64,000 bases of DNA from Escherichia coli (GCF_041886205.1 NZ_CP169029.1), one strand, 5' to 3'. Shown: positions 34,047 to 40,279, counted from the stretch's first letter. Notes: generated from the letters alone by a model not told the origin. Translations and numbers: made by a program.

Positions 34047-34295
34047 CTAAGAGAGCACGGATTCCCTGTCATTAATAATGATATCCGTTAGTGTAGTCTT
34101 ATGCATTTCAATGTACTGCAATATTTGCAGATAGAGATCAGAAAGAATCACACTGGTTTCATCTTTTAAACGCAAGCGTAAAGCCTGATCAATAATATGA
34201 CTATCAACATACCCATGCGTCATGAACACCTCCCTCTCGAGATTTTTAAACAAAGCACATTGAAAAATAAATCTCTCTGGGATTGAATTATTCAT
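34047..34295 (-). CDS. ymgC: Protein YmgC, 82 aa
   Basis: Synteny (last gene of ycgZ-ymgA-ariR-ymgC) and translation. Confidence 0.8.
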   Translation of the reverse strand: MNNSIPERFIFQCALFKNLEREVFMTHGYVDSHIIDQALRLRLKDETSVILSDLYLQILQYIEMHKTTLTDIIINDRESVLS

Positions 34296-34407
34296 GTCAG
34301 CCTCGTAGAAATATTAACCCAATAAAATTATGCTGTGTATAGTCTAAAGCGACAGACAAAAATAAGATGAATGAGTTTTCTATAAACTTATACTTAATAA
34401 TTAGAAG

Positions 34408-34674
34408 TTACATATCATCAGCTGTGTATCGCAACACGATTTCCAGTGTTTTTCTAATCACATCAGCTTTGAGAATATCACTTGTTGTTTCCAGGGAGTG
34501 TATCAGACTTAAGATAATATTTTTATTATTAACATTATCGCCTGAAAGCATTAAATTGGTGACAGCCTGCCCTAACACAGCTGACTCTTCTTCTAACAAA
34601 TTACCCGAACTGCGAAAGTAACTTGCTAACGCTTTATCAGTTATTGCATTATGAATTGTAGTATCTTCAAGCAT
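34408..34674 (-). CDS. ariR: Regulator of acid resistance / biofilm modulator AriR (YmgB), 88 aa
   Basis: Translation [61 protein letters not shown]... recognised. Confidence 0.85.
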
Positions 34675-34702
34675 GGTAACCTCTCATCTTACTTATGAAA
34701 TT

Positions 34703-34975
34703 TTAATGTATTCTGTTTATTTTCTTACCATTGAACATACTTTTATTGTCAGCTGTCGCTGTTCTTCGGTTTAGCCCTCCTGAATCACTATTGCTAAAAT
34801 CACGAATTATGCTGTCGATTAAATCGCGTCGGAAAGCATCTTCCTCAGCCGATTTCATTACGAGTAATTGCTTAATAAGAGTCTGCAATGAAAAATTTAT
34901 CTTCATGCGCAGTATCTGGAGCACCGCCTGGCCAGTAATTTCATATTTTATACGTTCATTATCAGATGTCTTCAT
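34703..34975 (-). CDS. ymgA: Connector protein YmgA, 90 aa
   Basis: Translation and synteny. Confidence 0.8.
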   Translation of the reverse strand: MKTSDNERIKYEITGQAVLQILRMKINFSLQTLIKQLLVMKSAEEDAFRRDLIDSIIRDFSNSDSGGLNRRTATADNKSMFNGKKINRIH

Positions 34976-35017
34976 AACGACTTCATAGCTAACCTGTTAA
35001 ATAATCAGGCTGTTGCA

Positions 35018-35248
35018 TTATTCAAAAAGCAACCCAATTAGTGCATTATAATGTTTCTGTTCCCCTGTCGCTTGTTCCAGTCGGCATAGAAGTTTGGCAC
35101 AAAGCGACTTTCGACTCAGATTACGTCCATCTTTCAAAATCTCAGTCACAATTTCCCCGAGAGTTTCCTGCTGAGTAGGCAAGTTAGCTTTTGCAAAGTA
35201 ACGAGTGATTGCTCCCGCAGAATCTAAAGTCACTGAATTTTGATGCAT
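35018..35248 (-). CDS. ycgZ: Connector protein YcgZ, 76 aa
   Basis: Translation and synteny; divergent from bluF. Confidence 0.8.
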   Translation of the reverse strand: MHQNSVTLDSAGAITRYFAKANLPTQQETLGEIVTEILKDGRNLSRKSLCAKLLCRLEQATGEQKHYNALIGLLFE

Positions 35249-36940: not shown

Positions 36941-38043
36941 TTTTACAGGCCGTATTCGACAAAGGCACATCAAAATTTCAGCTAACTTATGATGACAGAG
37001 CGCTACAATTTTTTCGTACTTTTGTCCTTGCAACCGAACAATCAACCTATTTCGAGATCCCTGCCGAAGATTCCTGGCTTTTTATCGCTGACGGATCTGA
37101 TAAAGAACTTGATTTCTATACCCTTTCACCAAATATAAACGACCGCTTTGCCTTTCATCCAATTGTCGATCCCTTATCGCGGCGGATAATCGCTTTTGAA
37201 GCCATTGTGCAAAAAAATGAAGATAGCCCATCAGCTATAGCGGTTGGGCAGCGTAAAGACGGGGAAATCTACAAAGCGGATCTCAAAAGTAAGGCGCTTG
37301 CATTCGCGATGGCACACGCACTTGAGCTCGGTGATAAAATGATTTCAATCAATCTATTACCTATGACCCTGGTTAACGAACCTGACGCAGTCTCTTTTTT
37401 ACTTAATGAAATAAAGGCCAATGCTCTGGTGCCTGAACAAATCATCGTTGAATTTACTGAAAGTGAAGTCATATCTCGGTTTGATGAGTTTGCCGAAGCG
37501 ATTAAATCGCTAAAGGCTGCTGGTATCAGTGTAGCAATTGATCATTTTGGCGCAGGTTTTGCTGGTTTGTTACTCCTGTCACGCTTCCAGCCTGACAGAA
37601 TTAAAATCAGTCAGGAATTGATTACCAATGTTCATAAAAGTGGGCCACGGCAGGCAATTATTCAGGCGATCATAAAATGCTGTACATCACTTGAAATTCA
37701 AGTCAGTGCTATGGGCGTGGCAACACCAGAAGAGTGGATGTGGCTTGAATCCGCAGGAATTGAGATGTTTCAGGGGGATCTGTTTGCTAAAGCTAAATTG
37801 AATGGTATCCCTTCCATAGCGTGGCCGGAGAAAAAATAATTTTCAGCACATTCTTTCACATGATTTCAGTAAATCATCGTGAAAATGAATACGTTATGTT
37901 TAAATTTAATCCACATTAAAAATAATGTTTCATCCAAATTAGCTGAAATCTTATTTATACTTTGTACAATTTTAGCGTATATTGTACAAAGTATTATTGG
38001 GTCGTGTACAGGCGACGGAGATTTATGACCGCAAGGAGGAATT

Positions 38044-38775
38044 GTGGCTTATTACAGCATTGGTGATGTTGCTGAACGTTGCGGGATTAATCCTGTCACT
38101 CTCCGGGCCTGGCAACGCCGCTACGGTTTGTTAAAACCACAGCGCAGTGAAGGCGGACACCGACTCTTTGATGAAGAAGACATACAACGTATCGAAGAGA
38201 TCAAGCGTTGGATAAGTAATGGCGTCCCTGTAGGCAAAGTTAAAGCATTACTGGAAACCACCAGCCAGGATACGGAAGATGACTGGAGCCGCCTGCAAGA
38301 AGAGATGATGTCAATTCTTCGTATGGCTAATCCTGCCAAACTACGCGCAAGAATTATTTCACTGGGTCGAGAGTACCCAGTAGATCAATTGATTAATCAT
38401 GTTTACCTTCCTGTTCGCCAGCGTCTCGTGCTTGATCACAACACCTCCCGCATTATGAGCAGTATGTTTGACGGCGCATTAATTGAATATGCAGCAGCCT
38501 CGCTTTTCGAAATGCGCCGTAAGCCCGGTAAAGAAGCCATTCTGATGGCGTGGAATGTTGAAGAGAGAGCACGATTGTGGCTGGAAGCATGGCGTTTATC
38601 ATTGTCAGGATGGCACATTTCTGTTCTTGCTGATCCCATTGAATCGCCGCGCCCGGAACTGTTCCCGACGCAAACATTGATTGTCTGGACAGGCATGGCA
38701 CCAACAAGAAGGCAAAACGAACTTTTACAACATTGGGGTGAGCAAGGTTATAAAGTCATCTTTCATGCCCCCTAA
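38044..38775 (+). CDS. bluR: MerR-family repressor BluR (YcgE), 243 aa, GTG start
   Basis: Translation recognised ([32 protein letters not shown]...). Confidence 0.9.
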
Positions 38776-38994
38776 TTTCACCTTTATCCCGCCCCTTAGA
38801 CAGAATGTTATAATCTGAACCCACAACAGCGTTTGTACCGGAGCTGGTCCGTTGCAAAATGCTCACCGGACAATTCAGGTAATCCCCCTTTCACACTTTG
38901 TACATATCACAGCCAAAGGACAGACCAGATTGAAGTGGTAAAACCGATCGTGCACACTACGCAGTCTCACAACTAACAAGAGGTTATTATCCTG

Positions 38995-39399
38995 ATGGAT
39001 CAGGTCGTTGTTTTTCAAAAGATGTTTGAGCAAGTGAGAAAAGAGCAAAACTTCTCCTGGTTTTATTCAGAATTAAAACATCACCGTATTGCACATTACA
39101 TTTATTATCTGGCTACGGATAACATCAGAATTATTACTCACGATGACACGGTTTTGTTATTAAGAGGAACCAGAAACCTGTTAAAAGTTAGTACGACCAA
39201 GAACCCTGCTAAAATAAAAGAGGCCGCATTGCTTCATATTTGCGGAAAATCTACATTTCGGGAATACTGCTCAACACTGGCAGGCGCGGGCGTTTTCCGT
39301 TGGGTTACTGATGTTAATCATAACAAACGCAGTTACTACGCCATTGATAATACGCTTTTATATATTGAAGATGTAGAAAATAATAAACCATTAATCTAG
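38995..39399 (+). CDS. ycgX: DUF1398-family protein YcgX, 134 aa
   Basis: Synteny and translation. Confidence 0.8.
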   Translation: MDQVVVFQKMFEQVRKEQNFSWFYSELKHHRIAHYIYYLATDNIRIITHDDTVLLLRGTRNLLKVSTTKNPAKIKEAALLHICGKSTFREYCSTLAGAGVFRWVTDVNHNKRSYYAIDNTLLYIEDVENNKPLI

Positions 39400-40024
39400 C
39401 TAAAGTTGGATGCTTAAGAAATGCTTCATAATTCAGTAAGGCATTAGCATAATGGGAATAAAAGTGCAGAGACCATTCCTATGGTTCTAATACTGCCTTT
39501 TTATTGCCGCCCATAGATGTTCAGTACACCAATACTATAAAATTGATATTGAAATGTACTCCCTTGCTTATTGATACATTATTTTATACGGTTAGTTTGC
39601 TTTTAAAAACAACGGGCGTGCTATACGCCTGTTTCATGGCTTAACCCATATTAATTTTGCTTTATTTTTCATCGCGTTATAAGTTTTTAACCAGCAACGA
39701 GTTATCCTTTACTATAAAGTTCAATAGTTGAGACCTTACCCTCATGTCATGCGTATATTCATTATAATGCTCCTTAGACAAAAAAAGCCAACCATGATGG
39801 TTGGCAAAGTGGCACAAAGTAGCATAAAGGCTATGCTTTAATTACAGAAGGTTCAGTCATTTAAATGTATATCGTTTTATCTAAACAGAACTAAAACGAA
39901 GTGAATGATTTCACTTTTCCACTAAATCTCATTTTGTTTAATCTCTGTTGAGATTCCTTGCTTTAAATTTTGTTTTATAAAACAGTAGCTTTATTTTTTA
40001 ATTGATTTTTAGGTAATATAAAAA

Positions 40025-40279
40025 ATGCAAAATCAAGAAATGAATATCCAAATTAAACTATACGCTTATTTAAATAAATATGACACTCGCCTTACAGAAG
40101 AAAAAATTGCGATTGATAAAGCTATTAGAGAATTACATTTTAGCAGCGAGCATGTTGATAACAAAAAAATAATACTGAAGTTACTTTCATTTTTATCATA
40201 TACAGATGATGTTGTTGAAAAAGACATTATCAGAAATACATTGGAAGTGGTTCTTCTTTTTACTTCCGATGATATTTAA
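40025..40279 (+). CDS. AriR/YmgB-family small protein, 84 aa (paralog of ariR)
   Basis: C-terminal half aligns by eye with AriR (NKKIILKLLSFLSYTDDVVEKDIIRNTLEVVLLFTSDDI versus [39 protein letters not shown]); AT-rich surroundings. Confidence 0.6.
   Translation: MQNQEMNIQIKLYAYLNKYDTRLTEEKIAIDKAIRELHFSSEHVDNKKIILKLLSFLSYTDDVVEKDIIRNTLEVVLLFTSDDI

Follow-up and report, generated by a model that had tools for sequence, protein, structure and literature searches.

A second AriR-family gene upstream of iraM in some Escherichia coli strains, and its loss from K-12 by deletion

AriR (YmgB) and IraM are small proteins that rewire stress signalling in Escherichia coli, affecting Rcs and biofilm, guanosine tetraphosphate (ppGpp) and the stability of RpoS, and nearly all knowledge of them comes from K-12. 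A 64,000-nucleotide (nt) stretch of E. coli DNA (GCF_041886205.1, NZ_CP169029.1; here called the window, with positions counted from its first letter) carries between ycgX and iraM an open reading frame (ORF) that had been described, from the sequence alone, as resembling AriR. This arrangement raises the question whether the ORF truly constitutes a second gene of the AriR family (referred to below as the paralog), in which strains it occurs and whether K-12 is among them, from which promoter it would be expressed, and what an AriR-type protein encoded beside iraM might do.

An AriR-family protein encoded between ycgX and iraM

The ORF, ycgX and iraM all lie on the + strand, and iraM begins 243 nt downstream of the ORF. 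The positions on which the analysis depends are the following.

40025-40279, + strand: AriR paralog, 84 amino acids, YmgB/AriR family (BLASTP, PF10798, structure model, RefSeq WP_047634476.1)
39935-39951, + strand: PhoP-box-like direct repeat TGTTTA-N5-TGTTGA, TGTTTAATCTCTGTTGA, predicted to be where the paralog/iraM promoter is activated (pattern search)
39964-39969, + strand: predicted -10 hexamer TAAATT, 12 nt past the PhoP-box-like repeat (inferred)
40280-40522, + strand: spacer between paralog and iraM, 243 nt, poorly conserved and with no predicted terminator
40523-40846, + strand: iraM, anti-adaptor of RssB (NCBIfam PRK09919, 172 bits)
40057-40493, + strand: segment of ~431-437 bp missing from K-12-like genomes, comprising the paralog from codon 12 onward and most of the spacer

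Alignment of the encoded protein with the AriR of the window by BLASTP returned 29 identities over 73 positions (40%, with 62% positives) without gaps and with an E value of 5e-18. The preliminary description, which had proposed a second AriR-type copy adjoining iraM, is thus upheld by a significant formal alignment, although it had understated the extent of the resemblance, having confined it to the C-terminal half of AriR: the AriR-like stretch comprises residues 12-84, i.e. almost the whole protein. The paralog further matches PF10798 (YmgB) at 57.4 bits (E 1.4e-15; cut-off 22.3) over profile positions 2-59 of 59, and its sole sequence match in the PDB is YmgB (2OXL, E 1.4e-11).

An AlphaFold2 (AF2) model of the paralog, built from a family alignment of 25 sequences spanning several enterobacterial genera, has a mean predicted local distance difference test score (pLDDT) of 87 and contains four helices. 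Its top match in the PDB is 2OXL_A, with a probability of 1.00, a target-normalised template modelling (TM) score of 0.92, a root-mean-square deviation of 1.2 Å over 60 columns and 43% identity, and the structures ranked below it are at E ~1. The nine columns that are invariant in the 25-sequence alignment are all retained in the paralog (E26, K47, I50, L53, R70, L73, T80, D82 and D83), the near-invariant N46, L57, D62, D67, E74 and V76 are likewise present, and the core motif of the family, NK-IIL...D..R..LE.V...T.DD, is satisfied. R70 of the paralog is aligned with R74 of AriR, a residue whose substitution abolishes SpoT binding (PMC10704370).

By sequence and predicted fold, the ORF is thereby confirmed as a true second gene of the AriR family. 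It belongs to a known family, varies in its presence among strains and is uncharacterised, and automatic annotation has already given it a name: an identical gene is present in strain 6EVA, where RefSeq lists its product (WP_047634476.1) as "biofilm development regulator YmgB/AriR family protein". No mention of a second AriR copy was found in the AriR/YmgB or iraM literature searched.

Strain distribution, selection and the K-12 deletion

A blastn search with the ORF located the paralog in 29 of 5,426 complete E. coli genomes, where it is found either as allele A (the window type, 95-100% identity; 10 genomes) or as allele B (~81% identity, 86 amino acids; 19 genomes). Ten carrier copies, namely those of the window and of nine genome loci, were read individually, the other 19 carrier genomes being outside this reading, and the ORF is intact in eight of them; at every locus read the paralog is directly followed by iraM, and at the allele-A loci, as well as in EC42405, it is closely preceded by ycgX. 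Among 1.84 billion protein representatives the paralog constitutes its own 50%-identity cluster, its next relatives being ordinary AriR-type proteins of ~40% identity, and cluster look-up showed 190 contigs with the exact protein and several hundred with allele B. The named cluster members that were read are all labelled E. coli, bar a few allele-B entries labelled as other Escherichia, and a word-indexed protein search returned proteins that are all labelled E. coli. Peptide and DNA pattern scans, which need an exact match and which diverged copies could escape, found the paralog in no other species among 100,044 species-representative genomes. A mobile origin of the paralog was rejected, as tblastn gave no match among 50,697 phage records and, in plasmids, AriR-type matches alone (~39% identity).

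Between alleles A and B the nonsynonymous divergence (dN) is 0.12 and the synonymous divergence (dS) 0.86, which corresponds to a ratio of 0.14, and the 84 shared codons contain no indel; the ratio of nonsynonymous to synonymous differences (pN/pS) is ~0.2 between the alleles and, for all distant pairs, 0.06-0.26 in the paralog, which is as low as the 0.18-0.30 in iraM. These sequence comparisons show purifying selection on the paralog across two deeply diverged alleles, and the gene reads as one that has been functional over a long history while being dispensable in many backgrounds. Protein identity between the haplotypes is 74% for the paralog and 72% for IraM. The IraM of the window is 96% identical to that of K-12, whereas the IraM of allele-B strains (EC42405, in which it is encoded at 6504-6827, and two others) is just 72% identical to both. 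By its sequence the allele-B IraM makes up a third type of anti-adaptor, separate from IraL, which is reported to be 59% identical to IraM.

Whether K-12 possesses the paralog had been left undecided in the preliminary description; it does not, and keeps an 11-codon stub only. The homology between window and K-12 stops at 40056 and restarts at 40494, with multiple alignments, among them one of 11 sequences, agreeing within a few bases, and K-12-like genomes lack ~435 bp, comprising everything after paralog codon 11 and the spacer except its last ~30 nt. Upstream of the junction the N-terminus is retained (MQNQEINILMN against MQNQEMNIQIK). Because the retained K-12 DNA still encodes the N-terminus of the paralog, the difference is attributed to a deletion in the K-12 lineage, not to an insertion in the window. 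What is left in K-12 is a 22-codon ORF, MQNQEINILMNHIKYRGIRHNK, the first 11 codons of which are the paralog stub and the TGA of which overlaps the iraM ATG; it is unannotated in NC_000913.3 (~1212000-1212070, minus strand) and may act as a translationally coupled leader for iraM.

In approximately 4,960 genomes the match to the intergenic region between ycgX and iraM (~81% identity) ends at the deletion point, and these genomes appear to have the deletion haplotype; the junction as such was read in K-12 and LR-64-1 only. Loss of the paralog from K-12 and most E. coli via a ~435 bp deletion is shown by these comparisons. A candidate microhomology of 6 bp (ATTAAA) at the ends of the deletion was dropped, since it failed re-inspection of the junction.

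Predicted PhoP-type promoter and possible role

A PhoP box is a direct repeat, (T/G)GTTTA-N5-(T/G)GTTTA, which replaces the -35 element ~12 nt upstream of the -10 hexamer. When the 64-kb window was searched with the pattern KGTTTA-N5-KGTTKA, three matches were obtained against 0.04 expected. One of these, TGTTTAATCTCTGTTGA, is located 74 nt upstream of the paralog ORF, and another, GGTTTATTTAATGTTTA (48315-48331), which serves as an internal positive control, precedes the start codon of phoP by 61 nt. In both cases 12 nt separate the box from the -10 (predicted TAAATT at the paralog; CATAAT, 48344-48349, at phoP). The PhoP-box-like site is conserved in the allele A, allele B and K-12-like haplotypes, and the promoter-core block TTTAAATTT is invariant in 11 aligned sequences. 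Conservation of the promoter block amounts to 84% between A and B and to 90% between A and K-12, whereas it is 40% in the adjoining 5' untranslated region; the identity between A and B is 61% in the spacer between ORF and iraM, and 81% in the paralog ORF. The third match of the search, TGTTTATGCCTGGTTGA (24360-24376), lies between minE and an ORF on the opposite strand encoding an autotransporter-like protein of 1,181 amino acids, with no obvious downstream gene on its own strand.

In K-12, iraM is PhoP-induced (review PMC10948607), and just ~35-39 nt of native sequence are left before its ATG; for these two reasons the PhoP promoter of K-12 iraM must be located upstream of the stub, in DNA homologous to the paralog promoter. 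Text and sequence-string searches of the literature, which did not cover the Bougdour 2008 study, yielded no source for the K-12 iraM start site or PhoP box. A terminator scan predicted no + strand terminator between paralog and iraM, and the simplest reading of the sequence is that the two genes form one PhoP-activated transcription unit; the link to PhoPQ that had been suspected at this locus thereby finds support, at the sequence level, in the conserved PhoP-box-like repeat.

The predicted inputs of the two AriR-type genes differ, because a BluR operator motif is present at the ycgZ promoter and none is found upstream of the paralog, which is 5 kb away from the ycgZ-ymgABC operon, beyond bluR and ycgX. 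The motif was taken from a DNase I footprint (PMC3509220), and a search of the window for TGTAC-N(8-14)-GTACA returned matches nowhere but at the ycgZ promoter and one unrelated site. With no operator found upstream of the paralog, its control by BluR was rejected; a 12-mer shared by the two upstream regions, CATTTAAATGAC, is close to chance expectation in AT-rich DNA. Rfam detected no RNA family in the locus.

In the intergenic region between ycgX and the paralog, where every annotated gene is on the + strand, terminator-like hairpins with T-runs are present on the minus strand at 39787-39805 and 39615-39629, the former being inside the ymgK reading frame and 87-91% conserved between haplotypes. 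The counterpart of the K-12 small protein YmgK (39794-39841) is retained as MMVGKVAQSSIKAML, and that of YmgL (39452-39490) has its frame shortened to 12 codons (MGIKVQRPFLWF), compared with 36 in K-12. An antisense ORF at 40066-40227 is unsupported, and a 55-codon ORF (40359-40526) ending on the iraM ATG was dismissed as a gene, not being conserved in allele B.

AriR makes contact with RcsC at its cytoplasmic kinase domain and has YcgZ and YmgA as associates (PMC6900184), its activation of Rcs needs no RcsF (PMC11709261), and separately it raises ppGpp by binding the TGS-helical region of SpoT (PMC10704370). We propose that the paralog and iraM would form a two-gene operon, with the paralog in first place and a PhoP-activated promoter formed by the PhoP box at 39935-39951 and a -10 at ~39964-39969, that the paralog would be produced together with IraM under low Mg2+ or acid, and that it would bind proteins, not DNA, as AriR does. 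Its likely targets would be the RcsC cytoplasmic kinase domain, with activation of Rcs, and/or the SpoT TGS-helical region, with a rise in ppGpp; such a role is our best guess by analogy, since the fold, the conserved surface of the third helix and the critical arginine are all retained in the paralog. In carrier strains PhoPQ would in this manner have two outputs, IraM linking it to the stabilisation of RpoS and the paralog linking it to signalling by Rcs or ppGpp, and this coupling would bypass the blue-light BluR/BluF control of the canonical ariR. The combination of a functional paralog, a PhoP-driven operon with iraM and AriR-like protein binding is, in our judgement, probable by a narrow measure.

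Several observations count against this combination. At 40% identity to AriR the partners of the paralog may differ, and YcgZ and YmgA, the reported partners of AriR, are not encoded beside it; the promoter assignment is inferred from geometry and conservation, and the second half-site is off consensus (TGTTGA here, with one deviation, and CATTGA in K-12). Two allele-A copies are damaged, that of wlxctx60 by a frameshift and that of XJ5.2 by a stop at codon 4, the Shine-Dalgarno sequence of allele A is weak (AGG ~13 nt before the ATG), pN/pS of very close pairs is 0.5-1.0, on just 4-8 substitutions, and the gene has been lost from >90% of genomes. These damaged copies, the weak Shine-Dalgarno sequence, the close-pair ratios and the small number of carriers relative to the ~4,960 genomes with the deletion haplotype, together with a location in an AT-rich block (27% GC) resembling a prophage relic, would also be expected of a decaying gene that had a function in the past, perhaps within a prophage or a different lineage, and that is now neutral and vanishing with few lineages left. 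Such decay is considered unlikely in view of a long-range ratio of 0.14-0.24 at dS ~0.86, a lack of indels between the alleles and a constraint equal to that of iraM, as well as the retention of all family-invariant residues and the recurrence of both alleles on the many contigs cited above.

A functional paralog could also be a unit of its own, with a PhoP-like repeat that serves the paralog only or is fortuitous, and with the iraM promoter inside the 243-nt spacer, a distance that is long for an operon. A consensus scan indeed revealed sigma70-like hexamer pairs on the + strand within the ORF, e.g. at 40215-40242, and one PhoP half-site, TGTTTA, is present in the spacer (40337-40342); however, promoter-like matches in the region do not exceed those in shuffled sequence (11 vs 8.9 +/- 2.5), no terminator is predicted after the ORF, and the spacer is poorly conserved and nearly all absent in K-12, in which iraM is still PhoP-inducible, so that we regard separate units as being just as unlikely as decay. 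Finally, the paralog might work with its neighbour rather than on Rcs or SpoT, for example by binding or stabilising IraM or by modulating the IraM-RssB complex, an explanation suggested by the strict linkage of paralog and iraM in the 29 carrier genomes, by their similar divergence between haplotypes and by the report that full-length IraM is poorly soluble alone (bioRxiv 10.1101/2023.01.07.523045). This is very improbable: IraM of K-12 works without the paralog, physical linkage by itself accounts for the parallel divergence, and the prophage-borne homologue iraL (CFT073 type) has no AriR-like neighbour in its lambdoid prophage.

The proposal of a PhoP-driven operon that encodes an AriR-like protein and IraM may be extended to the ancestral iraM locus, which could have been a two-gene connector operon under PhoP control; in carrier strains, low Mg2+ or acid would thereby stabilise RpoS and at the same time turn on Rcs, SpoT-dependent ppGpp or both. 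Deletion of the first gene would have uncoupled these outputs in K-12 and most E. coli, and the 22-codon stub would now set iraM translation by coupling; this extension is tentative and, taken as a whole, somewhat doubtful. As to what the locus means, it shows the K-12 version to be a deletion derivative, and some natural E. coli possess an extra AriR-type gene which, by sequence evidence, is under the PhoP-type promoter of iraM. If this is true, strains vary in whether Mg2+ or acid sensing also reaches Rcs or ppGpp, and the K-12 iraM leader holds a fossil upstream ORF that could affect iraM translation. The finding is a modest one, the paralog being an ordinary family member, and its value resides chiefly in how PhoP outputs vary among natural strains and in how the iraM leader of K-12 arose.

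Neighbouring features and comparison with known systems

The gene order in the window is ycgZ-ymgA-ariR-ymgC, bluF, bluR, ycgX, iraM and icd, the e14 prophage being absent. The features that surround the paralog and iraM are as follows.

34408-34674, - strand: ariR (ymgB), canonical copy (PF10798, 90.3 bits; named ariR in syntenic genomes)
34703-34975, - strand: ymgA, no demonstrable homology to AriR
35018-35248, - strand: ycgZ, distant and partial AriR relative (NCBIfam YcgZ_fam, 113 bits)
34047-34295, - strand: ymgC, closing the ycgZ-ymgABC operon and unrelated in sequence (named ymgC in syntenic genomes)
35305-35323: BluR-operator-like site TGTAC-N9-GTACA at the ycgZ promoter (pattern search)
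35884-36940, + strand: IS903B-like insertion splitting bluF, with 18-bp inverted repeats and the 9-bp target duplication TTTTACAGG
38995-39399, + strand: ycgX (DUF1398, prophage-type gene; PF07166, 161 bits), left edge of the divergent AT-rich block

The preliminary description had counted four AriR/YmgA-like proteins in this region, namely YcgZ, YmgA, AriR and the paralog. All four genes are present, and AriR and the paralog are clear members of PF10798; the grouping does not hold for the other two, YcgZ being a distant relative and YmgA having no demonstrable homology. YcgZ scores 25.1 bits against PF10798, AriR matches the NCBIfam model YcgZ_fam at E 3e-6, and hhalign relates the AriR family to YcgZ over the first two core helices with a probability of 86% (E 5e-6); on this sequence evidence YcgZ is related to the AriR family distantly and in part. 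YmgA gave no BLASTP alignment, an hhalign probability of 2.5%, no Pfam or NCBIfam match and an AF2 model of low confidence (pLDDT 66) with no match in the PDB, and its homology to AriR is not claimed in view of the hhalign value and the poor model. YmgC likewise has no Pfam or NCBIfam match.

The insertion sequence (IS) that interrupts bluF between its BLUF and EAL parts is an IS903B-like element of 1,057 bp with inverted repeats GGCTTTGTTGAATAAATC, and leaves bluF fragments at 35484-35894 and 37207-37839. The BluF blue-light anti-repressor is probably inactive in this strain, as judged from the split gene; BluR should therefore stay unopposed and the ariR operon repressed, and a PhoP-driven copy would, speculatively, count more. 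Several IS copies are present in the window. A second IS903-like transposase ORF (322 amino acids) is located at 5614-6582, an ALIL pseudoknot (an IS3-family frameshift signal) at 6869-6985 and the small RNA C0299 at 17774-17852, and the best complete E. coli genome match to the queried 25-kb and 8-kb stretches of the window is ~97-98.6%.

Between haplotypes A and B, dS is 0.52 in ycgX, 0.86 in the paralog and 0.77 in iraM, against 0.05-0.07 in bluR and ariR, and the divergent block has a GC content of 27-37%. In E. coli clone D i14, iraL (5034-5369) belongs to a lambdoid prophage, being in its lysis region and 4 kb away from the ycgX homologue ydfO (DUF1398; 792-1202), and ycgX has prophage homologues (PMC3509220). 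Because of this position of iraL near ydfO, the prophage homologues of ycgX, the divergence between haplotypes and the AT-richness of the block, the segment from ycgX to iraM looks like an old prophage relic adjoining the icd integration site.

The closest known system is AriR/YmgB of K-12 (b1166; 2OXL; PF10798), with which the paralog has in common its family, its predicted three-helix core, its length class (84 amino acids, compared with 88 in AriR) and the family-invariant residues, including the SpoT-binding arginine (R74 in AriR, R70 in the paralog). The paralog differs from AriR in that it is only 40% identical, is outside the ycgZ-ymgABC operon with no BluR operator found upstream, is located upstream of iraM behind a PhoP-box-like site, and occurs in ~0.5% of complete E. 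coli genomes, whereas AriR occurs in nearly all. YcgZ and YmgA, the operon partners of AriR, are like the paralog small cytoplasmic helical proteins encoded within the same 6 kb, and the paralog gives no BLASTP alignment to either. Connectors of the IraM, PmrD and SafA type are small, are induced by one two-component system and bind another regulator directly. With these PhoPQ connectors the paralog has functional analogy only; it shares with iraM the locus and probably the promoter, and is unrelated in fold and family to IraM, the fold of which is PmrD-like. Compared with the region upstream of iraM in K-12, from ymgK to iraM, the window is homologous through paralog codon 11, the PhoP-box block included, and again over the last ~30 nt before iraM, while K-12 lacks the ~435 bp in between and keeps the 22-codon upstream ORF instead.

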